The position numbers and the translations under genes are program-made. From the sequence record OR769032.1: DNA of 64,000 bases; one strand, 5' to 3'. This document shows, piece by piece, positions 1 through 19,069 of the stretch. The notes beneath the pieces were generated by a model. It searched no databases and had not been told where the DNA came from. It saw nothing but the letters and a program-made list of their open reading frames with translations. This stretch comes from Escherichia phage JoYop. Numbering within the stretch: the stretch's first letter is position 1; each line of letters opens with the position of its first letter.

Positions 1-40
1 CTTCTAGTTTAATGACAATCTCCTGGATAACATTTTCCAT
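1..40 (-). CDS. 5' end of an ORF downstream of uvsX (T4 gene 40 position); continues past the window start
   Basis: Minus-strand ATG at 38-40 translating MENVIQEIVIKLE... and running off the window edge. Confidence 0.3.
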   Translation of the reverse strand, partial: MENVIQEIVIKLE

Positions 41-96
41 AGCGGATTTAATTATCTTAAGAGATTCATTAAAAAGACGTTCTTTTCTTTCTTCTT

Positions 97-114
97 CCCC
101 CTCCGAAGAGGGGG
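97..114 (-). terminator. UUCG-tetraloop hairpin between uvsX and the downstream gene
   Basis: ccccctc-cgaa-gaggggg on plus strand, i.e. CCCCCUC-UUCG-GAGGGGG on the transcribed strand. Confidence 0.4.
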
Positions 115-152
115 ATTCATCGATAATTTCTAGATCTAAATCTAAATCATCT

Positions 153-1334
153 TTATTCATTAAATTCTTCCATATCACTTAACTGATCTAGGTCAGTTTC
201 TAAATCAGCTGCTGATTTACTTTTACTTTCTGGAAATTTAAATTTTTCAACCTTTGAGTTAATTAATTCATCAACTTCAGCTTCAACAATTTCATTACTA
301 TCAATAGCACCTAACTGATAAGCACGTTTAATAGCATCTCGGAATGGTTGATGCTTAAATAAAGGACCCCAGAATGTAGTACAGTTGGTATCTTTTGCAC
401 GCCAAGATTTTTCTTCGCGAATCATCTCGCCGGTTTCTTCATCAAGAAATTCACGAGCATACCAACCATTTTTAGGTTTTACTACAAATCCTAATTCTAG
501 AGCCATATCTAACAATCCAGAATAAGGATCGATACCACCGTCAAATTTAACATCAATAAAGAATTTACTTTTTTCTTTAACGGTACGAGATTTTTCTACA
601 TTTAGAACAAATTGATACCCCTGAAGATCAGAACCATCTTTAATCTGGCGCTTACCGATAATGAATACGGTATCAGCCGAATACATTACGCCTGTACCAC
701 CTGTCATCACGGTTTTACTAAACATTTCAATTGTTTCAATTGTATGGTTAACCGCAACACATGGAATATTTTTAATGCTAAAATAAGGAGTAACAATACG
801 GAATAATGACTTCAGCGATTTAGCACGAGTCATATCTGCCACAGATTTTTCATTCAAGGCATCTTCCGTTTCTTTCTTAGAAGCCATATTACCGATTGAG
901 TCGATGAAAACAATAACCTTTTCACCACGCTCAATAGCTTCAAGCTGATTCACCATATCAATTTTCAGTTGTTCAACTGACTGAATTGGTGTATGAATTA
1001 CTCGTTCCGGGTCAACACCCATGGATCGCAAATAAGCTGGAGTAATACCAAATTCGCTATCATAAAATAGACAAACCGCGTCAGGATATTTGTTCAAATA
1101 CGCCGCAACCATAGTCAAAGACATATTTGATTTAAAGTGTTTAGAAGGACCTGCAAAAATAGTTAAACCAGACTGCATACCACCATCAATCGCACCAGAA
1201 ATAGCGATATTAAGCATTGGGATTTTTGTGCGAATTACATCCTTTTCATTAAAGAATTTAGATGTAGTCAGTTCAGCAGTCATTTTAGAAGTGGAAGCTT
1301 TAATCAAACGGGATTTTAAATCTGCAATAGACAT
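153..1334 (-). CDS. uvsX: UvsX RecA-like recombinase
   Basis: 393 aa; N-terminus MSIADLKSRLIKASTSK and full-length resemblance to T4 UvsX as recalled; RecA-type ATPase core. Confidence 0.95.
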   Translation of the reverse strand: MSIADLKSRLIKASTSKMTAELTTSKFFNEKDVIRTKIPMLNIAISGAIDGGMQSGLTIFAGPSKHFKSNMSLTMVAAYLNKYPDAVCLFYDSEFGITPAYLRSMGVDPERVIHTPIQSVEQLKIDMVNQLEAIERGEKVIVFIDSIGNMASKKETEDALNEKSVADMTRAKSLKSLFRIVTPYFSIKNIPCVAVNHTIETIEMFSKTVMTGGTGVMYSADTVFIIGKRQIKDGSDLQGYQFVLNVEKSRTVKEKSKFFIDVKFDGGIDPYSGLLDMALELGFVVKPKNGWYAREFLDEETGEMIREEKSWRAKDTNCTTFWGPLFKHQPFRDAIKRAYQLGAIDSNEIVEAEVDELINSKVEKFKFPESKSKSAADLETDLDQLSDMEEFNE

Positions 1335-1411
1335 TCATTTTTTCCATAGGCATCATTATATTTTCCTCACTGGTTAAAGATAAAGTAATTATAACACAAT
1401 AAATTTAGGCA

Positions 1412-2260
1412 TTAATCAACTGCTATTGGATGAATAGCATTAAACTTATGAAATGCTTCTGATTTTTCTTTACGCGAAACACACATGCGAAGAACCTTTA
1501 ATGGCTCGTCTTCTTCACCCAACGATTTTCGCTTTTCAATATTAGATGTTTTCCAACGAGCTTGCTCTGGAAACTCTTTATTAATTTGCTCAAGCGCTCT
1601 ATTATGTTTAGAATTACTACGAATTGAACTACACCCACCCGGAGCCTGTGCTTTTCCAGATACAACCAGATATTTGAACAAGGCCAAATGCGGATAACCT
1701 TGATTAATTAAATTGAGAAATGCATACATATCTTCGCATAAATCAATTTTTCCATACCCAATTTGTTCTGTCGTAAGTTTTCCGAGGTCATACCATGTAT
1801 TCGTGAATCCATATGAATTTTCACGATAATTACCCCAAGATGAAGTAATTTTAAAAATTGGTAGACGAGCATGGCCATGATAATACCCACAATCCATAGC
1901 ATCTTCAACGTATTGAATTAATTCGTAGAATTGTTCACGGGTTAATTGATTGACTTTATCTACACAACGACGATCGTCTCTTTTTCGCATTGAGCTCATA
2001 CGAATCGTAGTATCATCGTCAATCATCCAGATTCGTTGACCTGCATACATATCAGTAATTGCTTTACGAGTACCAGCAATTCCATTTACATCATCAGGAA
2101 TGGTTATAATTTTAGCTCTAGACCCGTAAGCGTCATAATAAGCTTTTTCTTCATGTTCACGTACTACGATATGAGGTTCATAATCAGTCGGAAACATATC
2201 AAGGGCAGAAACTGCCCCTACGCGTTGATAGCTTGGAATTACAAATTGAATCATTTCCAC
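1412..2260 (-). CDS. GT-A fold glycosyltransferase in the beta-gt position (T2/T6-type beta-glucosyl-HMC-alpha-glucosyltransferase candidate)
   Basis: 282 aa; FVIPSYQR N-terminal GT-A signature and DDD motif (WMIDDDTTI); sits between uvsX and gene 42 where T4 has beta-gt; does not match T4 beta-gt as recalled. Confidence 0.7.
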   Translation of the reverse strand: MEMIQFVIPSYQRVGAVSALDMFPTDYEPHIVVREHEEKAYYDAYGSRAKIITIPDDVNGIAGTRKAITDMYAGQRIWMIDDDTTIRMSSMRKRDDRRCVDKVNQLTREQFYELIQYVEDAMDCGYYHGHARLPIFKITSSWGNYRENSYGFTNTWYDLGKLTTEQIGYGKIDLCEDMYAFLNLINQGYPHLALFKYLVVSGKAQAPGGCSSIRSNSKHNRALEQINKEFPEQARWKTSNIEKRKSLGEEDEPLKVLRMCVSRKEKSEAFHKFNAIHPIAVD

Positions 2261-2991
2261 TCACCGTTATAATCTTTTTTCATAATATGAGTTTCGCCAG
2301 TATTCCACCAATGATCAACCAAGTAAAAATGACGGGAATATACATGAAGACTTCCAACATTCCATATAATAGAACCTGCTTTATACTGACGAGTTGAATC
2401 GCCTGCATTCAAATCAGATACTAATTTATCTAGTACGTATTTTTGCCATGCATAGTCATTACGGAATCCGAAGACCACGTCATTTGAGCGCATGCTAACA
2501 ACTGCATTGATTTTCTTGTCACGAATCAAGTATTGTACTGTATTCGTGCACATGAAATCTGACATACCATCTTTATTGTAGTCAAATTGCATGGATGGAC
2601 GAGTATAAATCATGATACCACGTCGAGAATCAGGATTTTGACCAAGTTCAGCTAAGCACATATCATACTGGGCATAGTTATCTTCTGACCAGATAGCCCA
2701 ACCATAATTCGAGTTAATTTCGCCTTTAGAAGATGCTACCTGTTGCCAAATCTTTGGTGTTTCACCTGGAATATCTTTAACAAACAGGCTTTGAGACTTG
2801 TACCATTCAAGTTCACGCTGAATGTATTCATCATTAAGAGCACCAAAAATAAAGGGTTCATCTGCTACAAATGATGCGCCAATAATTTCAATAGTTTTAA
2901 CACCAGTTTTATCAATTACGAAATCTTTTTCCTTTAATGCAGTTCCCAAATAAAGACGGATTTCTTCAACTGTCATAGAGTCATTAATCAT
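2251..2991 (-). CDS. 42: dCMP hydroxymethylase
   Basis: 246 aa; near-identical to T4 gp42 as recalled (MI.DSMTVEEIRL...GASFVADEPFIFGALNDEYIQRELEWYKS). Confidence 0.95.
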   Translation of the reverse strand: MINDSMTVEEIRLYLGTALKEKDFVIDKTGVKTIEIIGASFVADEPFIFGALNDEYIQRELEWYKSQSLFVKDIPGETPKIWQQVASSKGEINSNYGWAIWSEDNYAQYDMCLAELGQNPDSRRGIMIYTRPSMQFDYNKDGMSDFMCTNTVQYLIRDKKINAVVSMRSNDVVFGFRNDYAWQKYVLDKLVSDLNAGDSTRQYKAGSIIWNVGSLHVYSRHFYLVDHWWNTGETHIMKKDYNGEWK

Positions 2992-2998
2992 TTAAACC

Positions 2999-3148
2999 TC
3001 AATTGATGCATTCATATTTAAATTGTAACAGTAATAAACCCCACCCTATGATAAGAGTTGGAATCATAACAGGAACTGTTACGCTATAGTATATACTTAT
3101 TATAACCATCAAGATTAAAAGCAACACTGCTATAATTTTGCTTTTCAT
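2999..3148 (-). CDS. small membrane peptide (imm.1 position)
   Basis: 49-aa hydrophobic ORF MKSKIIAVLLLILMV...; start overlaps the imm stop (ATGA); not in the supplied ORF track (<60 aa). Confidence 0.45.
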   Translation of the reverse strand: MKSKIIAVLLLILMVIISIYYSVTVPVMIPTLIIGWGLLLLQFKYECIN

Positions 3149-3396
3149 TCTTTCTCTCTGATGATAATTACTTGATTTGGCTGTGCAGACTTTTTGGTTT
3201 CACCCGCAATTGACCAAATAAATGTAATAAACCAACCGATAATTGACCAGTTAAACAGTAAAGACGTGAAAAAGATTCCTACTGTCGATTTTGACCCACG
3301 CATCAAGGCAATGAACCATGGAAGCATGTATATAATAATAGCCAACACGCCTGAAACTAAAACCATAAAAATTGAACCTGCTACTAAAGTTTCCAT
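3145..3396 (-). CDS. imm: Imm-like two-helix membrane protein (superinfection immunity)
   Basis: 83 aa, two hydrophobic segments, located between gene 42 and gene 43 as in T4. Confidence 0.65.
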   Translation of the reverse strand: METLVAGSIFMVLVSGVLAIIIYMLPWFIALMRGSKSTVGIFFTSLLFNWSIIGWFITFIWSIAGETKKSAQPNQVIIIREKE

Positions 3397-3403
3397 ATTT
3401 TCC

Positions 3404-3784
3404 TCACTTAGTCAAATTTTTTACACATGAATTATAAGAATTCACCACATACTCCATCGGAGCATTTTTACCTGTACGCCATTGGTAATTATTAGCCCAA
3501 TTTGCCCAAAGTTCAGCGCAATAATTTTCAATTTTTTCTTCGTGTGTAATTACATCTGAATTACGATATGCTTGAGCAGATTCATCTGGGCGAATAGCTT
3601 CGTCAAAATTCGCCTGCATTTGTTCTACTGTCTGCTTTGGAGCTTCTTTATAACACTTGACATTAGGATTATAAAATTTGCTTGAGCAGTTTACAATTTT
3701 TCCTACATCAGATTGATTTACTACCGGTCCTTGAGCTACACAACCAGTAAGACCCAATGCAATAACCAAAATAGCGATTTTCAT
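3404..3784 (-). CDS. predicted lipoprotein, unknown function
   Basis: 126 aa; signal peptide with lipobox (ALGLTGC); several Cys; no T4 counterpart recalled at this position. Confidence 0.6.
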   Translation of the reverse strand: MKIAILVIALGLTGCVAQGPVVNQSDVGKIVNCSSKFYNPNVKCYKEAPKQTVEQMQANFDEAIRPDESAQAYRNSDVITHEEKIENYCAELWANWANNYQWRTGKNAPMEYVVNSYNSCVKNLTK

Positions 3785-3794
3785 AACAATTTCC

Positions 3795-4031
3795 TCAAAT
3801 GCAAGTAGTAATTACACCTGTAGTGCTCACACATGTATTCCCTAATTGAACACCTAAAGATCCGTTAGTATTCATATGAAGATTATCACCAATTTTAGTT
3901 GATACTTTCCCATTCATATGAATAATAACACTAGATTCAATAGGAGTCTGAATATCATTTTCAACATCAATAAATGGAATTGTTGCTAATGCAACTAAAC
4001 AAACTGCTAAGCAACCATAAACAATTTTCAT
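3795..4031 (-). CDS. small secreted protein, unknown function
   Basis: ATG at 4029-4031 (track start 4043 is a TTG); MKIVYGCLAVCLVALA signal peptide; RBS GGAG upstream; directly behind an early promoter. Confidence 0.5.
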   Translation of the reverse strand: MKIVYGCLAVCLVALATIPFIDVENDIQTPIESSVIIHMNGKVSTKIGDNLHMNTNGSLGVQLGNTCVSTTGVITTCI

Positions 4032-4053
4032 TTTGTTCTCCAAATCCGTATCA

Positions 4054-4095
4054 GTTGATAGTTGTATAGTACCATGGAAGAACAGTGATGTAAAC
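4054..4095 (-). promoter_or_regulatory. T4-type early promoter
   Basis: On transcribed strand GTTTAC (4090-4095) then conserved GGTACTATACAACTATCAAC block (4054-4074); same module repeated at 29261, 31396, 34972, 47296. Confidence 0.6.
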
Positions 4096-4182
4096 AGTTT
4101 TGTGAAAAAATTTTCAATGAATTCTAAAGACCCAGAATCATCTGTTTTTCACAAGTATAGATTTATATTACTTGTATGAAAA

Positions 4183-4200
4183 AGGGACCCGGAGGTCCCT
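4183..4200 (-). terminator. hairpin downstream of gene 43
   Basis: agggacc-cgga-ggtccct, 7-bp stem. Confidence 0.45.
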
Positions 4201-4212
4201 AGATTTATTCTA

Positions 4213-6909
4213 TCAGCCAAACAGGAAGTCTAACGAAGCTTTTTCTTCATAGTCCATACCTGCCGATTCACACATACCTGCAAGTGGTTTAACAAACGAT
4301 TTTTGGAACAAAGTTGAGTAGTCAATCCAAGATAGTACGTCAGAACGAATTTCCTTTGGAAGTTCTGTTCCCGATGGCCAAGCAATACACTTATCACCAA
4401 ATGGGTTTCCTTCACGTAATGGAAGAACCATTACTTTATTTCCATCCAAAATTGGAGCTACACCTAAACCGCTAACAGCTCGACGATAAGTTAGCACACC
4501 ACGAATATGGAACGGGCATTTAAATCCTGGCCAACCTTTATCATCGTATTTCGCTATATCGTTCGCAGTTTTTACTTCAGCAATAACTTTATAGTCAAGT
4601 TGACGATATTCTTTCTCAAAGTTCTTGTAATATTCTTGGACAGACTCTTCACCTTCCTGAAGAATACGACGAATACTTTCTTCGAGAGCTTCTTGTACTG
4701 CTTTTGGTGTTGAACTCTGTTGAGTTTCCATACCCATGATTTTTAGATGCGGTTCAGCAAATCGCTTATCTTCCATATCATAAACGTTCAGAGCATAACG
4801 CTTTTTCGCTTTCCAAAAACCACCGACACCCTTTGAACCAAGTGGAGGACAAGAAATAGCTTCACGGTCCATATGCATCAGATGCTCGCGGTTATTCATA
4901 TAATCACATAACTCACGATATGCAACATCAATCATAGGTTCCATCTTTTTCTTACCGAACTGATTCATGAATTCAACTAAATCATTTTGTTCTTTAAAGC
5001 GGTCAAGACCTACTTTTTCAATAACTTTATCTACGCAAACATATACCGAATCAGTGTCACCAGCTGCGATGAAGTCTTCACCATTAGTTCCACACACTTT
5101 ATTCAGATACTCATTAATTTTACGAGCAATCCACTGAATACCAACTTGGCCGAAAATTGTGATAGCAGTAGCATTTCGCAAATCATAGTAACGGAAATGA
5201 ATATTACCAAGAGCACCATAAAGACTGTTAATAAGAATTTTACGGTTCAGCTGATTTGTATTAGCAAGTGTAGCAGCTTTTTCACATTCTTCAATCAAAC
5301 TATTGAGAACAGATTCAGTATAATTCGATAGTTCATTTAAGAAATCATCACTGAACTTAACATATCGTTCAACTTCCGGTTTAGTTGAACAAGTCCCTGC
5401 GCCTTTCATAATAATTTTTTTAATAGCTTCGGCATTCATTTCTTCTGCGAACATTTTCTTTTTCCAGTCTTTACGTTGGAAAAATACTTTAGCGATTTCC
5501 TTTGGAATGATACCTTCTTGGTGCTTATCATACATCCATCCATTCGGAGAGCAAGAATATTCATCACTTGGCTTAGGAGCTGTTCCTGCGATATATTCAT
5601 GAATTGGATGAACTTTAAACTGACCACGAATAGTCTCAGGACTAATGTTAACCTGACGAATAATGCTCGGATACAGAGAAGTTAAGTCAAAACTCATAAT
5701 ATACCGACGAGCAATCGGTTTAGGTTCAAACACAAATGCACCCGGAAAACTCTGCTTAACGTGTGAACCTTGCTGAGGAATAACCTTATGTTCACCTTTC
5801 AGTGAGTTAAAAATAATAGCATCCCAAGTTTTAATAGGACTCATTACGCCAGAAAAAGGCATTTTAGCGTAATAAGACATACTTAAAACCAGATCGATAA
5901 ACCCACGAATTTTATCGATTGCTTGAACTGATTCTACGTCAATGATGTTATAACTAATGTATCGTTGATGATTAGTCTCACGAAGTTTATTAATAGGACC
6001 ATCGTACGGTAATTTACCTTTTTTGGTTTCATGTTGAGCAACTGATTCCAAAGAGAATGACGGCAAATTAGTAAACGCGAATTTCTTATACAAATCTAAA
6101 TAATCAAGAATAGATACGCCATCAATAGAATAAATTTCTTTGCTACCGTACATGTTTTGAATTAGTTTAGATTTTACTCGACCGATTGGGGAGAAGCGTT
6201 TCATACTGCGTTCACCAAGAACCATTTTAACACGATTCATGATATACGGAACGTCAAATCCCTCAATATTCCAACCAGTAAAAATAGCAGGTCGTTTCTG
6301 TTCCCAGAGATTAATATATTCCATGAGCATATCACGCTCATTATCAAATGGCATATAAATTACTCGGTCAAGAATTTCTTGAGGAACTTCATCACCACCT
6401 TCACAGTCAAGCTTAGCAGCTAATTTTGCATCCCATTTTGATACTGAGCCATACATTGAATTCAACAAATCAAAGACGTAAAAACGGTCGTCAATTGAAT
6501 CATAATGAGTGATAGCATCAATTTCATATTCTGCTTTCATTGGGTCAGGAAATTTATCACCAGTAACCTCAATGTCACAGTTAGCTACACGAACAAATTT
6601 TCGGTCATAAACAATTTCCGAACCGTATGTATCACTGATATAAGCGAGTTTAAAATCGTTCATACCGAGAGCTTCGAGACCGATGTCTTCCATTCGCTTC
6701 ATCCAGTCTCGTGCATCTTTCATTGATGGAAATTTTTGAGGAGCGCAGTTTTTACCATAGATGTCTTTGTATTTTGACTCTTCCTTACAATGCCTAAACA
6801 TAGTCGGAAGATATTCTACTTCACGAGTACGTTCCTTTCCATTTTCATCAATATAACGCTCAACAATGTTATTTCCGACTGTTTCGATAGAGATATAAAA
6901 TTCTTTCAT
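4213..6909 (-). CDS. 43: DNA polymerase (family B)
   Basis: 898 aa; same length and extensive identity to T4 gp43 as recalled (MKEFYISIETVGNNIVERYIDENGKER..., DTDS motif). Confidence 0.97.
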   Translation of the reverse strand: MKEFYISIETVGNNIVERYIDENGKERTREVEYLPTMFRHCKEESKYKDIYGKNCAPQKFPSMKDARDWMKRMEDIGLEALGMNDFKLAYISDTYGSEIVYDRKFVRVANCDIEVTGDKFPDPMKAEYEIDAITHYDSIDDRFYVFDLLNSMYGSVSKWDAKLAAKLDCEGGDEVPQEILDRVIYMPFDNERDMLMEYINLWEQKRPAIFTGWNIEGFDVPYIMNRVKMVLGERSMKRFSPIGRVKSKLIQNMYGSKEIYSIDGVSILDYLDLYKKFAFTNLPSFSLESVAQHETKKGKLPYDGPINKLRETNHQRYISYNIIDVESVQAIDKIRGFIDLVLSMSYYAKMPFSGVMSPIKTWDAIIFNSLKGEHKVIPQQGSHVKQSFPGAFVFEPKPIARRYIMSFDLTSLYPSIIRQVNISPETIRGQFKVHPIHEYIAGTAPKPSDEYSCSPNGWMYDKHQEGIIPKEIAKVFFQRKDWKKKMFAEEMNAEAIKKIIMKGAGTCSTKPEVERYVKFSDDFLNELSNYTESVLNSLIEECEKAATLANTNQLNRKILINSLYGALGNIHFRYYDLRNATAITIFGQVGIQWIARKINEYLNKVCGTNGEDFIAAGDTDSVYVCVDKVIEKVGLDRFKEQNDLVEFMNQFGKKKMEPMIDVAYRELCDYMNNREHLMHMDREAISCPPLGSKGVGGFWKAKKRYALNVYDMEDKRFAEPHLKIMGMETQQSSTPKAVQEALEESIRRILQEGEESVQEYYKNFEKEYRQLDYKVIAEVKTANDIAKYDDKGWPGFKCPFHIRGVLTYRRAVSGLGVAPILDGNKVMVLPLREGNPFGDKCIAWPSGTELPKEIRSDVLSWIDYSTLFQKSFVKPLAGMCESAGMDYEEKASLDFLFG

Positions 6910-6927
6910 AGATATTCCTTAGTTTAT

Positions 6928-6945
6928 AGCCCGAGTTATTAGGCT
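6928..6945 (-). promoter_or_regulatory. gene 43 translational operator hairpin
   Basis: Transcribed strand AGCC-UAAUAACUCG-GGCU just 5' of the gene 43 RBS; matches the recalled T4 gp43 autoregulatory operator (short stem, AAUAACUC loop). Confidence 0.55.
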
Positions 6946-6967
6946 CTTGATATATTATACTCCAAAT

Positions 6968-6985
6968 AAGGGGCCGAAGCCCCTT
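6968..6985 (-). terminator. UUCG-tetraloop hairpin
   Basis: aaggggc-cgaa-gcccctt. Confidence 0.45.
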
Positions 6986-6987
6986 GC

Positions 6988-7209
6988 TTAAATTAGTACT
7001 ATTTGTCGGGTGAAAATTGTCAATCCATTTGCATCAATTGACTTAACGACTGCAGTAAAGTGTTTTTGTTCTGGGTGAATTAATTTTTGAAATTCTACCT
7101 GAAATTTTAGTTGGAGGTTTTCTGGTAAATCAAAAAGTGTTTCTGTCGCAGAAAGATTGTATTTTTCTTTAAGAGACGCCATGTATTCTTGCGGAGTTAT
7201 AGCAGTCAT
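6988..7209 (-). CDS. hypothetical small protein between regA and gene 43
   Basis: 73 aa from ATG at 7207-7209 (MTAITPQEY...), 2 nt after the regA stop; no obvious RBS. Confidence 0.35.
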   Translation of the reverse strand: MTAITPQEYMASLKEKYNLSATETLFDLPENLQLKFQVEFQKLIHPEQKHFTAVVKSIDANGLTIFTRQIVLI

Positions 7210-7210
7210 A

Positions 7211-7579
7211 TTAATTACCAATCGTATATTTAGGAACGAGTTTCCATTCATGTTTTTGTTTAAAAGAAATAACTCGGAAGTTATTAGTTAAATCTTTCAT
7301 AAAAGTTCTTTGGCCAGGAGCGATTTCAATCAGTCCCCAATCTTCTAACAGCCACGCAATCGAATCACGACGAATTTCATCTTCTTCTGTCATTTCAACT
7401 TGGCGACCATCCATGCGAAGCATTTCTTTAAAATGAACGATATAGTATAGTCCTTTTTTCTGGAGAATATGACAGGACTGATACAGAACTTTATCTTTGT
7501 TATTAGCAATTCCCATACGAGTCAAAGTTTCTTTTACTTTCAGAAAATCTTCAGGTTTTTTAAGAGTAATTTCAATCAT
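7211..7579 (-). CDS. regA: RegA translational repressor
   Basis: 122 aa; matches T4 RegA as recalled; order regA-62-44-45 conserved. Confidence 0.9.
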   Translation of the reverse strand: MIEITLKKPEDFLKVKETLTRMGIANNKDKVLYQSCHILQKKGLYYIVHFKEMLRMDGRQVEMTEEDEIRRDSIAWLLEDWGLIEIAPGQRTFMKDLTNNFRVISFKQKHEWKLVPKYTIGN

Positions 7580-7580
7580 T

Positions 7581-8144
7581 TTACCATTCCAATGCTAGTT
7601 TTTTGAGTTGTTTCTGTTCTTTTACGTTCTTAGTCACTTCTTTCAAAAAATCATCCGTGACTAAACCTTTTAGTTCTTTTAATACTAAAGGAAGTTTTCC
7701 ATTTTTAGTAAGAATTGATTTATAGTTAATTGCATCATTCGTATTAACTTGATACCGCTTAGCAAGTAACTTAATAATCAATACTTCGGTAGAATCTTCA
7801 ACCAGTTTCGCCCATTTACCATATCTTTTACCACGAGGAACTGCAGCCATTAGATAATTAAAATGAGCTTCATCACTTAATCCAGAACCGATTAAATTCA
7901 TTGCATACACTGCCGGCATGCACTCCGGAAATTGTGATAGTGCATTTTCAACCATGAATTTTGAATAATCTTTTTGAGCAATAGAGCATTTAGTTTTATT
8001 ATTAATAGCTCCAATTATTTCAAAAAATTCATTTTCAGCTTTTTCTTTAAAAGAATCAGCAGCAGATTGGACAGCTGTCCAATCTTTTGAATACCAAGCA
8101 ACTTGATGCTCGTTTAATTGAATATCATCTTCAAATAAGCTCAT
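7581..8144 (-). CDS. 62: clamp loader small subunit
   Basis: 187 aa; position and length match T4 gp62. Confidence 0.9.
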
Positions 8145-8145
8145 A

Positions 8146-9105
8146 TCACTTCCACTGCATTTCGCATGCTAATTGAATGAAAAGATAAGCTAAATGTAAT
8201 TCCGTGTTAGCTGCAATTCCATGATACTGGTTATTTTCACCGACAATTTCATACATGCGAATAATACTCTGTGGAGTTACACGTGAATAAATTTCTTCGG
8301 CAAGTTTACCAACGAACCAAGAATAATCAGCCGCATATTTTGGTGCTAAAGCTCTGAGTTGTTTAACATCTTTATTTTTGAGAGACTCAAGAACATCATC
8401 AATAGCACCACGATCGTTAGTAACCAGTGATAAAATACCAGCATCCAAAACACCTTTAGATGAATAACTATCGAGCTCACCAATAGTTTTACGAAAATCA
8501 GGAAAATTCTTTTTAACCAAAGCTGCTACAACTTTCATATCAGCTATAGCAATTCCTTCATGCTTGCAGATTTCAGTCAATCGACGAATCATCTGCTTCA
8601 TCATTTCAATTTTATCTTCATCGGTCGGTTGACCGAACGTAATAACTCGGCAGCGTGACTGAAGTGGTTTAATAATACCATCAATATTGTTAGCAGTAAT
8701 AATAATACTACAGTTTGAACTATAAGCTTCCATAAAGGAACGAAGATGCCGCTGAGACTCTGCTAACCCTGAACGGTCAAATTCATCAATAACGATTACT
8801 TTTTGACGACCATCAAATGAAGCTGCACTGGCAAAATTAGTCAAAGGACCACGAACGAAATCAATTTTACAATCTGACCCATTCACAAACATCATATCAG
8901 CATTTACATCATGGCACAATGCTTTTGCTACGGTTGTTTTACCTGTTCCTGGAGAAGGAGAATGAAGAATAATATGTGGAATCTTACCTTTACTTGTAAT
9001 AGATTTAAAGGTTTCTTTATCAAAGGCGGGAAGAATACATTCATCGATAGTAGATGGACGATATTTCTGTTCAAGAATGTGTTCTTTTTCATTTACAGTA
9101 ATCAT
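8146..9105 (-). CDS. 44: clamp loader large subunit (AAA+)
   Basis: Start taken at MITVNEKEH (319 aa); Walker A SPGTGKTT; matches T4 gp44 as recalled. Confidence 0.93.
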
Positions 9106-9137
9106 AATTTCCTCATTCAAGTTTTAGTGTAAATTAT

Positions 9138-9155
9138 AAAGGGCCGAAGCCCTTT
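9138..9155 (-). terminator. UUCG-tetraloop hairpin between genes 45 and 44
   Basis: aaagggc-cgaa-gcccttt. Confidence 0.45.
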
Positions 9156-9156
9156 A

Positions 9157-9843
9157 TTAAAAGTCGTGGGTAGAATCAGCTTCAAGAGCTACTACATAAT
9201 TCGCATGTTCACCTTCAAATTTAGCAGCACCTTGTTTACCTTTTGCCCAAAGCAGAAGTTTATAATTTCCTGGTTGCATTTTCATATTTGCCATATTGAT
9301 AATGAAATTAAATGTATTTTCACCATCATAATCACCAAGAGTCAAAGAATATTTAACACGAGTCAAAGCAGAATCTTCTACTTTATTAAAACCGTTAATT
9401 ACGATTTTACCTTCTTTTACTGTGATAGCAATTGTATCAATCTGCAGACCACGAGATACACGCAACAGCTGTTGAAGGTCTTCAGCTTTAATTTCAGTAA
9501 CAACAGATGCTACCGGGAATGGAATTGGTTTATTAGGAGCAACTACTGTACTTGGATCGGCTGCTGGCCAAAAAATTGTTGAGCGGGCATCAGCAATTTT
9601 AATATTTCCATCTTCTGACTGGGAAATTTCTGCATCATCATTAACTAAGGACAGAATACCAAGAAAACCGTTCAAATCGTAAATTGCTACATCAAAATCA
9701 ATAACGTCAGAAATATTTGCTTCCGCATAAGTTGTACCATTAACTGCGCGAGTCATAATAAATTGACCTGATTTAAGCATAATACCGGAGTTAATAGTAG
9801 CGAAATTTTTAAGCAGAGCAGTAGTATCTTTAGACAGTTTCAT
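9157..9843 (-). CDS. 45: sliding clamp
   Basis: 228 aa; length and position match T4 gp45. Confidence 0.93.
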   Translation of the reverse strand: MKLSKDTTALLKNFATINSGIMLKSGQFIMTRAVNGTTYAEANISDVIDFDVAIYDLNGFLGILSLVNDDAEISQSEDGNIKIADARSTIFWPAADPSTVVAPNKPIPFPVASVVTEIKAEDLQQLLRVSRGLQIDTIAITVKEGKIVINGFNKVEDSALTRVKYSLTLGDYDGENTFNFIINMANMKMQPGNYKLLLWAKGKQGAAKFEGEHANYVVALEADSTHDF

Positions 9844-9898
9844 GTAATTTCCTTCAATTCAAATGAGATTTAATTTTATAACTAATTTAATAAAGCAA

Positions 9899-10288
9899 TT
9901 AACGATTAAAATCAGAAGCAATTGTTTCTGCAACAATTTGAGCAGCAACAATTAGACGTTCATCTGCATTACCGCAATAATCATCTTCAAGGCGTTCACC
10001 ACATGAAGTCATAATAAATTTAGCACCAGCATTTAGGGATTCTGCAGTATGTTTACGCATTAGTTCAATCCATTTATCACTTACTTCACGATCGATAGCT
10101 TCATAATACGCATGACGAGCTGGAGCAGATTTAATTTTATCCTGAATAATTTCCATTGCGTTTTCAGAAAGAGACAAAACCCATGCTCGACGAATTTTAT
10201 TTTGGTTTTGCGGATTTGAGTCAGAACGCACGTGTTTTGGCTGAATATCTTTTACATCAACGTTATAATTCACAGTAATTTTAGTCAT
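9899..10288 (-). CDS. rpbA: RNA polymerase binding protein RpbA
   Basis: 129 aa directly downstream of gene 45 as in T4. Confidence 0.75.
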
Positions 10289-10297
10289 AATACACCT

Positions 10298-10486
10298 TTA
10301 GTCATAATAATCAGTAACAGTCCAAGCTTCATTTCTGTTGGACATTATTTTTGTATATTCTGATTTAAATGCATTCTTAAGCATAGATTCAGTAACTATA
10401 TGCTCTTCATTAGAAAAATTATTTCTCAGAATATATCGTTTTATTTCAGGAAAAGTTAATAAATGCTGTCCAGTTGAATATTCCAT
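10298..10486 (-). CDS. hypothetical protein (T4 45.2 position)
   Basis: 62-aa ORF between gene 46 and rpbA. Confidence 0.5.
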   Translation of the reverse strand: MEYSTGQHLLTFPEIKRYILRNNFSNEEHIVTESMLKNAFKSEYTKIMSNRNEAWTVTDYYD

Positions 10487-10541
10487 GTTTTTCCTCCATA
10501 GAGATTATACTCTAATAAATTAAAGCATAATCTCTTGTAAA

Positions 10542-12224
10542 TTAAGCCATTACAGTAAATCGACCAACTTTCTTCATTTGAAGATGCTGACCATATTCTT
10601 GTGGGTCATGGTCTTTATGCGAAATTATAAAAACATTAGTATTTTTCATTGAATTTATAATATTCGCTACACCTTTAATACCTTCGGCATCAAATGACCC
10701 ATCAAACACTTCATCGAGTATTAATGTACTAATACTAACACCAGATACAATAGAAGCAATATCACGCCAAGTAAATAAAAGAGCAATATCAATTCTTGCC
10801 TTTTCACCTTCACTAAATGAAGCATAACTAAAATCTTCACGACCGCGGGATTTAATTGTCTCATTAAATTCTTCATCTAATGTAAACACATAATCCGCTT
10901 CCATTATTTTAAGATAATGGTTAATCTGCTTATTGAATAATGGAATGTACTTTTTAATAATAGCACCTTTAATACCAGAATCTTTGAGCATATCAGTCAA
11001 AATTCCTCGGTGGTATTTTTCCATTACTAAATTAGTTTTTGTCTTAACAATTTTATCAAGTTCTTCTTGAAGCAGTGCTATTTCATCAGCATGGTCAATA
11101 AACTCAGAAGATGCTTTTTCTATAGCCGCTTTAACCTTTTTAGCTTTATCTACCGTCGTGATTAAAGATTGCTTTTTATTGCGAATATCATTTGCCAACG
11201 ACTGCTGGGTTTTAATATTATCTCGATATTCATCAACAAGAACTTTTAAATTATCACGATGTGTTGAAAGCTGTTCAAACGAATGCGTGCATTCAGAAAC
11301 TTTATCTTTAATTTTAGAAACAACTTTGTCACCGGAACTTAATTGTGACAAACAGGTTGGACATAATCCACCTTCGTGATACATATTAATGACTTTATTA
11401 TACGAGTCAATTTTTGATTTAATTAAAAATGCTTCTTGACCGATTTTATTAAATGCATCAGTCGGGTCTTCATCTAAAACAATATTAACTAATCTTTCAT
11501 TAGCTTCTTCAATTTCTGATTTTAGCGTTCTAGCTTCTTTTGCTAAATCATCATACATATTCTGCAGACGAGTAAGGTTGTCACCAGTTAATTTTTTCTG
11601 GCGTTCAACGTTATCATTATATATTTTAATTTGTTGGATAATACTATCTTTTTTAACGTCAAGCACTTGGTTTTGTGAATTTAATTCACGTATTAGTGCT
11701 TTATTAAGCTTATCCATTTCAGCTAATGTTCCTACCTCGAGCAGGTCTTCCACAAGCTTTCTTCGCGCAGGGGTCGACAAACCCATGAAAGGGGTATACC
11801 CTGCTGTACCAAGGACAACAATCTGCTTGAAACTGGCATATGACATTCCGATAAGCTGTTCAAATTCTGCTTGGAAATCTTTACTGCTGGCAGATTCATT
11901 AAGACGTGTACCGTTAACGGTGATTTCGAAAACGTTTGGTTTTTGTCCTCTTTTGATATAGTACTTTTTCTCATCATATTCCATCCACAGTTCAACTAAA
12001 AGTTCTTTCTTATTTGTGCTGTTTATTAATTGGCCTTTCTTTACATCGCGAAATGGCTTGCCAAAAAGCCCAAATGTGATGGCTTCTAACATAGTAGACT
12101 TACCACCGCCATTTCGTCCAGTAATAAGAGTTTTTTGAACCTTATCTAATTGAATGTCAATAGGATTTTGTCCAACTGACATTATATTTTTATATTTTAC
12201 TCTGTTAAGTTTAAAATTCTTCAC
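10542..12224 (-). CDS. 46: recombination nuclease subunit, SbcC/Rad50-like ATPase
   Basis: 560 aa; Walker A GRNGGGKST, coiled-coil middle, CPTC zinc hook; matches T4 gp46. Confidence 0.95.
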   Translation of the reverse strand: MKNFKLNRVKYKNIMSVGQNPIDIQLDKVQKTLITGRNGGGKSTMLEAITFGLFGKPFRDVKKGQLINSTNKKELLVELWMEYDEKKYYIKRGQKPNVFEITVNGTRLNESASSKDFQAEFEQLIGMSYASFKQIVVLGTAGYTPFMGLSTPARRKLVEDLLEVGTLAEMDKLNKALIRELNSQNQVLDVKKDSIIQQIKIYNDNVERQKKLTGDNLTRLQNMYDDLAKEARTLKSEIEEANERLVNIVLDEDPTDAFNKIGQEAFLIKSKIDSYNKVINMYHEGGLCPTCLSQLSSGDKVVSKIKDKVSECTHSFEQLSTHRDNLKVLVDEYRDNIKTQQSLANDIRNKKQSLITTVDKAKKVKAAIEKASSEFIDHADEIALLQEELDKIVKTKTNLVMEKYHRGILTDMLKDSGIKGAIIKKYIPLFNKQINHYLKIMEADYVFTLDEEFNETIKSRGREDFSYASFSEGEKARIDIALLFTWRDIASIVSGVSISTLILDEVFDGSFDAEGIKGVANIINSMKNTNVFIISHKDHDPQEYGQHLQMKKVGRFTVMA

Positions 12225-12436
12225 AAAAGATTCCTTTTAATGTATCTTTTAGACCATTCTATCATATCATCATAATCTAAAAAGTATTCATCAAATTCAG
12301 CCATACAAACAACGCCTTGTGCTGCTTTTGATGTGATATAAATTATTCCAACATATCTAGAATCTTCTTCGGTGTAATCAATATTTGCTATGAATTCATC
12401 ATTAATGTCAAATGTCGAAAACTTCACAGTATGCAT
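12221..12436 (-). CDS. hypothetical protein (46.1 position)
   Basis: ORF with internal ATG at 12434-12436; overlaps gene 46 start. Confidence 0.4.
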   Translation of the reverse strand: MHTVKFSTFDINDEFIANIDYTEEDSRYVGIIYITSKAAQGVVCMAEFDEYFLDYDDMIEWSKRYIKRNLL

Positions 12437-12671
12437 CCTTAATACAAGATACAGCCATATCTTGTAATGATTTAGGTGTATCATTATCTAAAATGTTGAA
12501 GTTAAAAGATACAGCCCAGTCAGTGCAGACTGTAACCTTTTTAATACAATTATCTTCAACCTCTAGCGGTTCAAACCAGTATTCAATAATATCTTTATGA
12601 CCAATATCATCTTTTACTTCGCATTCAAAATGCTGACTCATCATAACATTTTTAAATTCATCAAAAGTCAT
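12408..12671 (-). CDS. hypothetical protein (46.2 position)
   Basis: 87-aa ORF; start overlaps gene 47 stop. Confidence 0.45.
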   Translation of the reverse strand: MTFDEFKNVMMSQHFECEVKDDIGHKDIIEYWFEPLEVEDNCIKKVTVCTDWAVSFNFNILDNDTPKSLQDMAVSCIKDAYCEVFDI

Positions 12672-13687
12672 TGTGTTGCCTCTACATATAACTGATTTGC
12701 ATATTGAATAAGTGCTTCACGGTCAGAATCAGTGATGTCTGGAATTGCATTAATATACTCTTCCATCAACGTCTGAAGCGATTGAACTTCAACTTCTTCA
12801 CTATCATCTGACTCGACAGAGTTATCAATCTTTGACACAACTCGTAATGAATGCACAACTTTTTCTAGCTCAGATTCGAACTTCGTCAGATTTTTGTCTA
12901 CCTCAGTTACTATAACACGTACTGATAGATTTGTAAAATCTTTATAATCAATTTTTCCCTTAAATGGATATTGAATTCGACGATGCCAAGTAGTATTGTT
13001 TGGAATAAATTCCATTCGTTCTGTTTCTGTGTCAAACATCCAGAACCCACGAGGGTCATTCTCGTCACCTGCAGTTAGTGTCCATGGTGTCCCAATATAT
13101 TTGACGTTTGCAGCCTCAGAAATAGTATGGAAGTGACCAGACCACACTTCTTTATAAGTCTTAAGGAAATCAGGTTCAAGACCGTGAGATTTCATTCCTT
13201 TATAAAAATAAAATCCATTCAGTTCCCAGTGACCGACACAAAAAGAAGCAGATGAAGTTTTGATATGCTCAAGAATTTCACCAGTATTTTCTTCGCACAT
13301 CCAAGGAATCAAATCAATCAAACATCCGTCAAAATCTACTGTAGTAGGCTTATCATATACTTTAACATTAGGATATTTAGCCAAAAGCTCAGTAGAGGCA
13401 TTTGGAGTTAAAGTATTTTTGAAGTGCATATCATGGTTTCCTACAATAGTATGTAGGGTAATACCAGCATCATCAAGCATTTGAACTATTTCACGAGCGA
13501 ACTCCATAGTTTTATGCGTGATTGCTTTTCGCACATCAAAAATATCGCCGTATTGAATCCAGGTAGTAATTCCATTTTTCTTAGAATATTCTATAGCTTG
13601 CTTAATTCCATCCAGCTGAATGGATTGAACCCACTCATCATCGGCTTTAACGCCTAAATGCCAATCACCTAAATTTAAAATTTTCAT
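12668..13687 (-). CDS. 47: recombination nuclease subunit, SbcD/Mre11-like phosphoesterase
   Basis: 339 aa; calcineurin-like motifs (GDWHLG, GNHD); matches T4 gp47. Confidence 0.95.
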   Translation of the reverse strand: MKILNLGDWHLGVKADDEWVQSIQLDGIKQAIEYSKKNGITTWIQYGDIFDVRKAITHKTMEFAREIVQMLDDAGITLHTIVGNHDMHFKNTLTPNASTELLAKYPNVKVYDKPTTVDFDGCLIDLIPWMCEENTGEILEHIKTSSASFCVGHWELNGFYFYKGMKSHGLEPDFLKTYKEVWSGHFHTISEAANVKYIGTPWTLTAGDENDPRGFWMFDTETERMEFIPNNTTWHRRIQYPFKGKIDYKDFTNLSVRVIVTEVDKNLTKFESELEKVVHSLRVVSKIDNSVESDDSEEVEVQSLQTLMEEYINAIPDITDSDREALIQYANQLYVEATQ

Positions 13688-13824
13688 ATATCAAGAACCG
13701 TCATTGAAATGCAAAATAAAATTATTGAAATAAATCCATCTGGAGTGTTAAAAAACCCAATCCAACATGCTCTAGCGAATAGATAAAATGCAAGAAAAAG
13801 TATCACATATCCAAGAAATATCAT
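13684..13824 (-). CDS. small hydrophobic peptide
   Basis: 46 aa MIFLGYVILFLAFYLF...; stop overlaps gene 47 start (ATGA); hand-translated, not in ORF track. Confidence 0.35.
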   Translation of the reverse strand: MIFLGYVILFLAFYLFARACWIGFFNTPDGFISIILFCISMTVLDI

Positions 13825-13847
13825 TATATCAAACTCCGTATAAAGCT

Positions 13848-13865
13848 AAAGGGCCGAAGCCCTTT
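13848..13865 (-). terminator. UUCG-tetraloop hairpin downstream of alpha-gt
   Basis: aaagggc-cgaa-gcccttt. Confidence 0.45.
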
Positions 13866-15066
13866 ATTTTGTAATAATGTCAAACTGTTCTTTAAAACAG
13901 AAGCTTGAATCTTGGTGCTGATACAAAAATTCATAAGCTTTTTCACGTTCACGATCATAAAGAGCTCGGTCAGATGACAGTTCTTTAATTCGTTCAAATG
14001 TTGATTCCATGTCATTTTCATCAAACCAAACGATACCGCTATCATGCGAAATTAACGGAGTATTATCAACACGGAATTTTAAATTTTCGCCAGTAGATTT
14101 CCAAAATACCGGAATTGTTCCGCACGCACCAAGCTCGAGATGAGTATATTCTAAAGAACGTTGTAGATATTTTTTGTCCAACTTACTCAGCTGATAACCA
14201 AATCCGGATTTACTCATGCGTTCAAGCATTTCGCTATTTACATAACGGTCAAGAATTTGCGTTGGCAAATTAGGAGCAATTTTAATTTGGTCTACTTGAT
14301 GAAGACGATAATACTCGTATGGAATTCCTTTTTCTTTAATAGGAATGAATGCCGGAGAACGTTCCAGACCTTCCATAATAGTACTTAGTCCTGCAGGTTT
14401 AAGATGTTTTTCGTGAAAATCAAACATCTGATAAAAACCTTTCCACGTAGTTGTACGACCAATCCAACGGTTGATATTCATGTTAATTTCAGAAACATCT
14501 TTCCAGTAAGTTGATCGAACCTTCGCAATATCCATAGGAGGCTGAAAGTTATATACGGTCGGTGCTTCTTCAATATCATCAAACAAAGAAACTGTTTCTG
14601 GATACCATTCTTTCATCAAAACTTTATTAAAGTCACCATTATCAGAATGACTAAAAATAACATCAGCTCGACGAACAGTTTCTTCTAATCCCAAATTTCG
14701 GCGTAAAGAAAGAGAAGAATGGTCATGTTGATAAACTACAACACGAACAGAAGGTTTAATGTTATCAATAATTTTTTTATAGTTATTAATTGTGTCTTCT
14801 TCAACTGAAGTAGCAGGAACTGAATTGATAACTAGAATATCACAATCATTTACCAGCTTAAGTGTTTTATCGTATTCTTTTGCCAATAAAACTGGAATTG
14901 AAAATGACTTATAATCATGCGCGCAATTACGAGTAAATGATTTATCTTTAGCATAAACCAAAGTTACTTCATGACCATTTTTAATAAACCAATCACGCTG
15001 CTCAAGAGAAAATTTAGTTACGCCACAACCTTCAAGACCTCGAGCCATAAAAATGCATACTTTCAT
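13864..15066 (-). CDS. agt: DNA alpha-glucosyltransferase
   Basis: 400 aa; near-identical to T4 alpha-gt as recalled (M..CIFMARGLEGCGVTKFSLEQRDWFIKNGHEVTLVYAKDKSF). Confidence 0.95.
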   Translation of the reverse strand: MKVCIFMARGLEGCGVTKFSLEQRDWFIKNGHEVTLVYAKDKSFTRNCAHDYKSFSIPVLLAKEYDKTLKLVNDCDILVINSVPATSVEEDTINNYKKIIDNIKPSVRVVVYQHDHSSLSLRRNLGLEETVRRADVIFSHSDNGDFNKVLMKEWYPETVSLFDDIEEAPTVYNFQPPMDIAKVRSTYWKDVSEINMNINRWIGRTTTWKGFYQMFDFHEKHLKPAGLSTIMEGLERSPAFIPIKEKGIPYEYYRLHQVDQIKIAPNLPTQILDRYVNSEMLERMSKSGFGYQLSKLDKKYLQRSLEYTHLELGACGTIPVFWKSTGENLKFRVDNTPLISHDSGIVWFDENDMESTFERIKELSSDRALYDREREKAYEFLYQHQDSSFCFKEQFDIITK

Positions 15067-15117
15067 TTAATATCCTCATTGTTTTGGTTTATTTTACCAA
15101 AAATTTATAAAGCAATA

Positions 15118-15135
15118 TAGGAGCCGAAGCTCCTA
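15118..15135 (-). terminator. UUCG-type hairpin
   Basis: taggagc-cgaa-gctccta. Confidence 0.4.
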
Positions 15136-15306
15136 TCCGCATAATACGCCATACAGAGGCTCATTAGAACTTCTAAATTTTATACGCTTATATTTTATAG
15201 TTCCTTCTGCTTTAGCTTTATCATGAGACTCTTTAAAGCGTCTCATCATTTCTTCTTTAGAGGAACGAATTTTATTATAATCTATTTCAGAGGTCTGGGC
15301 GTTCAT
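15133..15306 (-). CDS. hypothetical small protein
   Basis: 57-aa minus ORF MNAQTSEIDYNKIRSSKEEMMRRF...; weak RBS. Confidence 0.3.
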   Translation of the reverse strand: MNAQTSEIDYNKIRSSKEEMMRRFKESHDKAKAEGTIKYKRIKFRSSNEPLYGVLCG

Positions 15307-15309
15307 CTT

Positions 15310-15516
15310 TCACAGTTGCCACCATTTTTTGACTTGATAAGAATCAACCCACACTTTCATATTAGGGTCTGCTCTTACAATAGGAGGATTAACTTCTTTA
15401 ATTGAACTATCATGGTATTCTTTTTCAGAAATTTTCACACAAAGATGACCATTCAAAGATTCAGTAAATCCTGCATTAATTTTAAGACGCTTGAATTTTA
15501 CGTGTGTAAGCATCAA
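15310..15516 (-). CDS. hypothetical protein
   Basis: 68-aa ORF in the alpha-gt to 55 interval. Confidence 0.45.
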   Translation of the reverse strand: MMLTHVKFKRLKINAGFTESLNGHLCVKISEKEYHDSSIKEVNPPIVRADPNMKVWVDSYQVKKWWQL

Positions 15517-15799
15517 TCATATCCTCAATCTGTGATCTAGTAGTCTTCCAAAGAATACTAATGAGTTCATCGTTATATGGCTGTTTAAGAATATCCCGAC
15601 TTTTCTTGATAGCATATTCGTACTGAGCAAAATTATTATTTTCAGCTGCAATCTGAGCGTGCTTGTAAAGACGGTTCAGTTCGCGTTTGTTTTTAGACAA
15701 TAACTTGTTTGCTTTTCTTTCTGCTTCAAGACGGTTCTTTTCTTCAATAGAAGAAATAAGCTTTTCCACTTCATCATTAATTTCGGGTTTATCAGTCAT
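15482..15799 (-). CDS. hypothetical protein
   Basis: 105-aa charged, helical ORF. Confidence 0.5.
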   Translation of the reverse strand: MTDKPEINDEVEKLISSIEEKNRLEAERKANKLLSKNKRELNRLYKHAQIAAENNNFAQYEYAIKKSRDILKQPYNDELISILWKTTRSQIEDMIDAYTRKIQAS

Positions 15800-15800
15800 A

Positions 15801-16019
15801 TTATTTCTCTAATATAAAATAAAAATCATCATCTGTTAAATGATACCGATAGTTTAATTCTACACCATTAGATTTAAAAGCGGTATCATACGGATTTTCT
15901 GGGTCAATATCAATGTCAAGAGCTAAAACTTCCCTGAGATACATTTTAAGTAAATAGGGAATAGCTTCAACTTCAGGTATTTCTTCCAAGAATCCGGAGA
16001 GGTTAATCGTTAGCCTCAT
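15801..16019 (-). CDS. hypothetical protein
   Basis: 72-aa ORF, stop adjacent to previous ORF start. Confidence 0.5.
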
Positions 16020-16560
16020 ATAAAAAATCCAAACTAGGAGAATCGTCTACAACACTTTTCTTTTCAGCCCCCGGTGTTCTATAGGTTGATTCTTCGTAAT
16101 GCGTCATTTTATCGTAGATATCTTGAATAAAAGTTTCATCTACTAACGCAACCATATCGTCGTCACGACTGTCATAGACATTGTGAACGAAGTAACTATA
16201 TTTCTTTGCAACTTCCTTACGCTCTTTTTTAATACGTTGGACGAATGCATTAAAACAAGCTTGAGTTATATATGCATGTGGGTTTTTATATTTCGTTTCA
16301 TCAAAATTATGAAGCCCCTTAATAGAAGCTTCTATACCATCTGCAATCATTTCTTGTTTCCAAGACTGGGTGTATCCTGAAAAGTTGAAACGTTTAGATA
16401 AGCCTTCTGCAATAAGCATAATGGCTAATCCGATAGTATCATTCTGACGAACTACTTTATTTGGGTCTTTATTATTTGCTAATTCTGTTTTCCAATCAAT
16501 AATAGCTTGTAAAAGCTCTTTATTGTTTACGTAATTATATTTAGGCTTAGTTTCTGACAT
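16003..16560 (-). CDS. 55: late-transcription sigma factor
   Basis: Start at [23 protein letters not shown] (185 aa); matches T4 gp55 as recalled. Confidence 0.93.
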
Positions 16561-16638
16561 TTTCACCTCTTAGCTCAATTCATAGATCTATTATATCATA
16601 ATATTTGAAGACCTATCTTAAAGCATAGAGGATATCAG

Positions 16639-16908
16639 TTATCTAAGTAAGCAGTATGCTTGGAACACTTTCTCCATCATCTTTTTAAATTCATGAATAT
16701 CTATATAATGACTAGTTAAATCAGCATGATATAAAAAGTCTAAAAACTTTTCATGTGTGCTAACATATTCACTTTCATTTAATTCAGAAACATGACTTTC
16801 CCAATATCCAACACCAGTCTTATTTGGGAAAAATGAAATTTTCATGTATTGGTCAACATAGAAAATTCCATAATTTTCAATAGTAATAGAAATATTAATT
16901 AATTTCAT
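16639..16908 (-). CDS. hypothetical protein (55.x)
   Basis: 89-aa ORF. Confidence 0.45.
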   Translation of the reverse strand: MKLINISITIENYGIFYVDQYMKISFFPNKTGVGYWESHVSELNESEYVSTHEKFLDFLYHADLTSHYIDIHEFKKMMEKVFQAYCLLR

Positions 16909-17120: not shown

Positions 17121-17122
17121 AA

Positions 17123-17449: not shown

Positions 17450-17501
17450 ACATTATCCTCAATTGCGTTAAAATTTTATTATCCAAAAAGGGCCGAAGCC
17501 C

Positions 17502-18310: not shown

Positions 18311-18334
18311 ATCAATTCCTCAAAGGCAATTCAT

Positions 18335-18463: not shown

Positions 18464-18466
18464 GTC

Positions 18467-19067: not shown

Positions 19068-19069
19068 AA

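Follow-up and report, generated by a model that had tools for sequence, protein, structure and literature searches.

The window analysed here, a 64,000-nt stretch of DNA from Escherichia phage JoYop (sequence record OR769032.1), harbours the replication cluster 45-44-62-regA-43, which lies on the minus strand throughout. According to the list of open reading frames, the cluster comprises gene 45 (9157..9843), gene 44 (8146..9120), gene 62 (7581..8144), regA (7211..7579), coding for the translational repressor of 122 amino acids and named as such in phage-record annotation, and gene 43 (4213..6909), which codes for the DNA polymerase of 898 amino acids (annotated as DNA polymerase in all matching phage records) and whose translation would be operator-controlled. 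One more cistron, orf43.1 (6988..7209, minus strand), is located between regA and gene 43. It encodes a protein of 73 amino acids (8.4 kDa, pI 6.0) which is not present in T4, and it was identified as an RB18-type allele from Pfam and PHROG matches, synteny, dN/dS and an AlphaFold model. Two of the listed start codons deserve a remark. Gene 44 is listed with five additional codons from an upstream TTG start; the gp44 of T4 begins with MITVNEK, and the extension is a listing artefact. Gene 46 (10542..12224, minus strand) is listed with a GTG start where the N-terminus of T4 gp46 (MKNFKLNR...) would fall, and this may be a genuine GUG start.

Comparison of positions 1..24000 of the window with deposited phages in INPHARED, where the phage itself is absent, gave a best identity of 95.9%, shared by vB_EcoM_R5505, PE37 and Sf23. 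Since the identity over these 24 kb tops out at this value, the window represents a relative of T4 and not T4 itself. All of the top matches are T4-like phages with the Tequatrovirus replication-gene set, and on these sequence grounds the source is assigned to the replication-gene cluster region of a T-even phage of the genus Tequatrovirus. RegA of the window shares 98% identity with that of T4; gp43 looks near-identical to its T4 counterpart.

The spacing between regA and gene 43 is 301 nt in the window versus 78 nt in T4 (NC_000866), where no gene is annotated in the interval. This bears out the sequence-only reading of the locus, which knew of no gene at this place in T4 and had proposed the comparison. 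Pairwise alignment revealed that the 88 nt preceding the gene 43 ATG are identical to T4 base for base, and that the 223-nt segment by which the two intervals differ consists of one T and the 73-codon ORF including its stop codon (7209..6988), inserted directly after the TAA of regA. In the 5' to 3' direction of the minus strand, the leader shared by the two phages contains a UUCG hairpin, GGAG, TATAAT, the operator hairpin, the Shine-Dalgarno sequence and the ATG.

The leader and operator of gene 43

The operator hairpin of gene 43, AGCCU-AAUAACUC-GGGCU (6928..6945, minus strand), has a 5-bp stem and an 8-nt loop at 6933..6940, and it is present in the minimum-free-energy structure of the region. 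It ends 7 nt upstream of the Shine-Dalgarno sequence AAGGA (6916..6920, minus strand), which belongs to the operator region, is identical to that of T4 and is followed by the ATG at 6909. The gp43 operator of T4 has been described as an upstream hairpin together with the sequence overlapping the ribosome binding site, its hairpin-loop being 18 bases long; the loop has a -UAAC- core, which the first SELEX experiment likewise picked out (PMC3014915). The hairpin of the window agrees with this description: it belongs to the gene 43 leader, where it directly adjoins the ribosome binding site on the 5' side, it is 18 nt long, and the loop AAUAACUC contains the UAAC core. The short-stem hairpin immediately 5' of the gene 43 ribosome binding site had been matched to the T4 polymerase operator in the sequence-only reading, and the identity to T4 confirms this match. 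In T4, gp43 that is not engaged on DNA binds the operator RNA, so that ribosomes cannot load on the gp43 mRNA. By sequence, the hairpin of the window is a T4-type gp43 translational operator unchanged from T4, and its binding by gp43 and the resulting repression would be expected from this identity. The 88-nt leader, the 18-nt hairpin, its loop and the distances to the Shine-Dalgarno sequence and the AUG are all the same as in T4, and the only difference concerns the upstream neighbour: the stop codon found 4 nt before the UUCG hairpin is that of orf43.1 here, whereas in T4 the same place is taken by the stop of regA.

Further support for the structure comes from covariation. Equivalent hairpins of eight lineages were extracted by pattern, as MAFFT/RNAalifold had misplaced the 4-bp stems of VR7 and QL01. 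The hairpin is AGCCU-AAUAACUC-GGGCU in Tequatrovirus, AGACU-AAUAACUC-GGUCU in Moonvirus KM16, AGCCU-AAUUACUC-GGGCU in Moonvirus CF1, AGUCC-AAUCACUC-GGACU in Enterobacter phage MY742, AGUC-AAUCACUC-GACU in Gaprivervirus VR7, AGAC-AAUCACUC-GUCU in Dhakavirus QL01, AGAC-AAUUACUC-GUCU in Kanagawavirus PEi26 and AGAC-AAUAACUC-GUCU in a 173-kb metagenome contig. The loop AAUNACUC is constant across the eight lineages, only its fourth base being variable. The stems covary, with the reservation that 4-bp and 5-bp stems are offset by one register: 90% of the cells pair, versus 63% after shuffling and at most 44% with the partners slid, and 12 cells are altered on both sides, a number reached by none of the 500 shuffles. 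Rfam contains no family matching the operator; the sole match, to a Brucella sRNA (E 0.16), fell on the terminator hairpin. A full-text literature search with the loop AAUAACUC returned unrelated siRNA and miRNA papers only.

A similar motif was noticed at the beginning of regA, where codons 2-8 (~7557..7576, minus strand; AUG AUU GAA AUU ACU CUU AAA) contain UUGA-AAUUACUC-UUAA, that is, the 8-nt loop of the CF1 and PEi26 operators on a weak 4-bp A/U stem. In a pattern search this motif was found in Tequatrovirus loci only, and it lies within the RegA-regulated initiation region. Its resemblance to the operator is probably due to chance.

Upstream of the operator, the G+C-rich hairpin AAGGGGC-UUCG-GCCCCUU (6968..6985, minus strand, core 6970..6983) is predicted by folding and is annotated as a terminator in phage e11/2. 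Its stem covaries across genera as well (GGGGC/GCCCC, GGGAC/GUCCC and GGGCC/GGCCC). A simple terminator scan did not call this hairpin; the e11/2 annotation and what is known of T4 suggest that it may serve as the terminator of the regA/orf43.1 transcripts. The hairpin is followed by GGAG (6960..6963, minus strand), a sequence of the type targeted by the RegB endoribonuclease, which T4 likewise has between its terminator hairpin and its operator; RegB processing is known to stimulate gp43 synthesis (PMC3014915). The adjacent TATAAT (6954..6959, minus strand), a -10-like box retained in most genera in the alignment, is, with GGAG upstream, a probable promoter element of gene 43. The promoter scan gave three promoter-like sites, equal to the chance expectation, and no -35 box was found. 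The arrangement of the UUCG hairpin ~8 nt upstream of TATAAT resembles the promoter-early stem-loop (PeSL) architecture described for RB49/phi1.

orf43.1, its product and its start

The ORF between regA and gene 43 matches the Pfam family PF25760 ('Phage RB18 ORF43.1 protein', Phage_RB18_ORF43) over its full length, with residues 5-73 aligned to model positions 1-69 of 69 (E 5.6e-29, 100.3 bits against a cut-off of 27), and PHROG 3826, a family of unknown function, with residues 1-73 of 73 (E 8.5e-37). The extra small ORF that had been pointed out in this interval, but was not recognised then, is hence the catalogued orf43.1 (PF25760). The gene is annotated as 'gp43.1 / ORF43.1' in ime09 and as 'similar to RB18 43.1' in RB51. 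It was reportedly first described by Miller and Jozwik in J Bacteriol in 1990 ('conserved regA and variable orf43.1 genes in T4-like bacteriophages'); the Pfam name and the GenBank notes corroborate the identity of orf43.1 independently of this paper. A full-text literature search found no paper on orf43.1, and a review of T4-related genomes does not mention 43.1.

Homologues were detected by tblastn in 309 phage records, 177 of them with more than 90% and 132 with less than 60% identity. The window protein is 93-97% identical to its counterparts in RB14, Sf23, e11/2 and ime09, the best match being that of Sf23 (97%), and no identical sequence was present among the matches listed. With RB18 orf43.1 (PF25760; PHROG 3826; gp43.1 of ime09; ORF047c of RB14/RB32) the window gene shares the family, the length of 73 amino acids, the position and the junctions, and it differs from these relatives by a few private substitutions (I44, D59, N61). 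In the window and in all 11 loci examined, the gene is flanked by regA and gene 43 and shares their strand; the loci opened included RB51, REP1, VR7, CF1, MY742, QL01, PEi26, e11/2 and two metagenome contigs. It thus occurs in Tequatrovirus, Gaprivervirus, Dhakavirus, Moonvirus and Kanagawavirus, as well as in an unclassified Enterobacter phage and two metagenome contigs; a scan of IMG/VR returned 8 loci only. The RB51-type homologues and those of Gaprivervirus, Dhakavirus, Moonvirus and Kanagawavirus occupy the same slot and share the predicted fold and the motif K..Y.L......FDL.E..Q..FQ...P...F.....G.....R...EI, but are only 36-47% identical to ORF43.1 of the window. RB51-type proteins differ additionally by a 6-residue N-terminal insertion.

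In the alignment of the family, residues K14, Y17, L19, F26-D27-L28 and E30 are invariant, and Q33, F36, Q37, P46, F51, G62, R68 and the C-terminal E72-I73 are nearly so; the type found in the window ends with LI in place of this EI. The residues before the first helix are poorly conserved. The dN/dS ratio (Nei-Gojobori) is 0.04-0.39 at every divergence level, and all indels comprise whole codons. An AlphaFold model (pLDDT 89.4, pTM 0.72) contains helices at residues 6-16 and 30-44 and a beta-hairpin formed by residues 50-58 and 64-72. ORF43.1 is accordingly modelled as a small alpha-alpha-beta-beta protein, and Foldseek searches against BFVD showed that divergent members of the family share the predicted fold (TM 0.74-0.90). 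Some RB51-type alleles (REP1, locus L008, 853..1077; NBEco003, P0031) carry different in-frame deletions of four codons in the conserved Q..EFQ helix segment; because of these deletions, ORF43.1 appears to tolerate a shortening of helix 2.

The start of orf43.1 adjoins regA. The ATG at 7209 follows the regA TAA (7213..7211) with the single base 7210 in between, in accordance with the sequence-only reading, which had put the start 2 nt after the regA stop. This TAA-T-ATG junction (7207..7213, minus strand) is of the coupling type, its spacing is kept in relatives, and stop-start gaps of one nucleotide are also found between genes 44 and 62 (TGA-T-ATG) and between gene 62 and regA (TAA-A-ATG). 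In other genera the regA-orf43.1 junction is either a 1-nt gap or a TAATG overlap. Coupling is not universal: the RB51-type, and this type only, has a 10-nt gap after regA and an AAGG Shine-Dalgarno sequence of its own. In the window the only upstream signal is a weak Shine-Dalgarno-like GGU. From this weak GGU and from the ATG located one base past the regA stop, we infer that orf43.1 is most likely translated by termination-reinitiation coupling to regA, which would tie the output of ORF43.1 to regA translation. The anatomy of the locus also suggests that orf43.1 may be the last cistron of the transcripts covering 45-44-62-regA, because its stop codon lies 4 nt before a hairpin that is annotated as a terminator elsewhere and has a covarying stem.

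It has to be considered whether the 73 codons stay open by chance alone in an A+T-rich spacer and yield no protein, as many spurious ORFs of 30-70 codons occur in the same A+T-rich region and the Shine-Dalgarno sequence is weak. A chance frame would hardly be conserved as a protein down to ~40% identity in at least five named genera and at a constant position, with a dN/dS of 0.04-0.39 and in-frame indels; nor would it belong to curated Pfam and PHROG families and yield a confident AlphaFold fold common to divergent members. This explanation is already effectively refuted, and we regard it as next to inconceivable. It is also very improbable, if less extremely so, that the true product is an 87-residue form initiated inside regA in overlapping frames. 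An in-frame ATG does exist at 7251, this start is used in the annotation of KK4/GADU22 (P0001), and the same extension is open in the Dhakavirus loci. The extension is, on the other hand, nothing but regA in another frame, and an upstream ATG is missing from the VR20-type Gaprivervirus locus (L012). Moreover, the Pfam model begins at residue 5 of the 73-residue form, most records annotate 71-73 amino acids, and conservation is already poor in the N-terminal residues that precede the first helix.

Variation at the site and its possible meaning

Within Tequatrovirus the site exists in three states: empty, RB18-type or RB51-type, the proteins of the latter two sharing ~40% amino acid identity. 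T4 and T2 have the empty state, as do about half of the 30 records in a spread sample, while the RB18-type allele, the state of the window, was present in 177 of the 504 matching records. The absence of the gene from T4 and T2 indicates that orf43.1 is dispensable. The similarity of ORF43.1 does not follow that of RegA: the window and RB51 have RegA proteins that are 98% identical and ORF43.1 proteins that are 39% identical, and the respective values for a metagenomic phage and the window are 76% and 74%. Because of this discordance, the alleles of orf43.1 appear either to have been exchanged between lineages or to be far older than their flanks. The GC content is 0.33 in both orf43.1 and regA, and base composition and GC3 match those of the neighbouring genes.

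The empty site of T4 probably arose from an RB18-type site by a precise deletion of 223 nt between the imperfect direct repeats TAATTAA, situated at the end of regA, and TAATTTAA, at the end of orf43.1. The 3' flank TAAGCAAGGGG is the same in T4 and the RB18-type, whereas the RB51-type differs. The junction alone fits deletion and insertion alike. Since five or more named genera have the gene in this slot and its base composition is that of regA, the best reading of the sequences is that orf43.1 would be ancestral to Tevenvirinae at the regA-43 position, and that the state of T4 and T2 would represent a loss.

The opposite direction of change, in which orf43.1 is a recently acquired mobile cassette (a moron or a PeSL-type element) that entered a T4-like empty site, seems rather unlikely to us, though there are several observations in its favour. 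The indel is base-exact and flanked by TAATT(T)AA repeats, very divergent alleles reside within flanks that are 98-99% identical, and the discordant similarity of the alleles and of RegA speaks for recombinational exchange. In addition, the downstream GGGG...CCCC stem-loop with its promoter-like box resembles a PeSL; a role in ORF shuffling among T4-type phages has been proposed for PeSL cassettes, and plasticity of the gene 43 locus has been described (PMC2839356). As in the PeSL cassettes of RB49/phi1 (PMC2839356), a GGGG...CCCC stem-loop is found beside a -10 box, the two separating a small variable ORF from the gene that follows. The locus of the window differs in that it has one element only, located 3' of the ORF (6954..6985), a 5' border formed by the coupled stop and start codons, and no -35 box. 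The promoter and stem-loop that would mark a PeSL mobile cassette on both sides of the ORF are thus found on one side, the other being the regA stop codon, and this assignment was rejected; because only one flank carries such an element, excision between two PeSLs is inapplicable. That five or more named Tevenvirinae genera carry the gene at this place, and that its base composition and GC3 are neighbour-like, likewise argues against a recent acquisition and for the ancestral presence of orf43.1.

Searches for relatives of ORF43.1 outside the T4-like phages detected none. The best match in a sequence search of the PDB was an esterase with a meaningless E of 0.25, Foldseek against the PDB gave at best an E of 0.33 with TM below 0.4, and against BFVD it retrieved uncharacterised family members only. 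Neither NCBIfam nor PADLOC contained a match to ORF43.1, and when 1.84 billion representatives were searched exhaustively with an HMMER profile, 10 clusters were returned with nothing beyond the ORF43.1 family. The top profile match of that search, a 3009-aa translation of 49 identical tandem repeats (P0032), is an artefact of additive scoring and no relative; the same applies to a 469-aa EF-hand repeat protein (P0036, E 4.6e-4), whose score is the sum of weak contributions from five repeats. An EF-hand in ORF43.1 itself was also dismissed. Measured against a 12-residue loop of the form D-x-[DN]-x-[DN]-G-x-[ILV]-x-x-x-E between two helices, the segment FDLPENLQLKFQVEF has P at loop position 3, L at position 6 and V at position 12; furthermore, no Pfam EF-hand was matched even at E<=10, and in the AlphaFold model residues 30-44 form one helix which is followed by the beta-hairpin.

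As for the role of the protein, our best guess, which is a tentative one, is that ORF43.1 is an accessory factor of the kind used in host takeover or counter-defence, useful under certain conditions and acting through binding to a protein of the host or the phage. This guess is based on the presence/absence polymorphism and on the very divergent alleles found inside near-identical flanks. We give a lower probability to a role in modulating RegA, gp43 or the replisome, because RegA and gp43 stay 98-100% identical while the orf43.1 alleles differ by ~60%. In its most specific version, with ORF43.1 as a dedicated regulator that binds RegA or gp43 and tunes translational repression, such a role would fit the gene's strict linkage, in every genus, to regA on one side and the gene 43 operator on the other, as well as its coupling-type junction with regA, and yet we consider it unlikely. 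Both circuits run in T4 and T2, which have no ORF43.1, and alleles that differ by ~60% next to RegA and an operator that are 98-100% identical speak against co-evolving partners. The protein is, moreover, near-neutral (pI 6.0) and has no nucleic-acid-binding signature, and because of its near-neutral pI a simple nucleic-acid binder is disfavoured too. The accessory role may be carried further, to a picture of orf43.1 as a three-state 'plug-in' slot in an otherwise frozen replication operon, filled by an 8-kDa factor that serves counter-defence or takeover in particular hosts, has a fold not met with among solved structures, is made in step with RegA by translational coupling and is swapped between genera by flank recombination; as a whole, this picture is a speculative one that we think quite unlikely.

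That the two elements of the interval are the gp43 translational operator and orf43.1 is, by contrast with any guess as to function, highly probable, and this concerns their identities only. Both are already known, and there is nothing new in either of them. The first SELEX experiment used the gp43 operator as its RNA target, while orf43.1 was catalogued decades ago and now makes up a Pfam family and a PHROG family of its own. The window comes from a close relative of T4 with a textbook operator and a catalogued small gene that is widespread among T4 relatives, so that the result is correct but ordinary. The point of interest is that the best-studied phage replication operon contains a widely conserved small gene under purifying selection whose product has no structural relative in the PDB. 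As orf43.1 is polymorphic between near-identical flanks, being present as one of two very divergent alleles or absent altogether, it is a cheap and tractable candidate for study in RB18-type phages.
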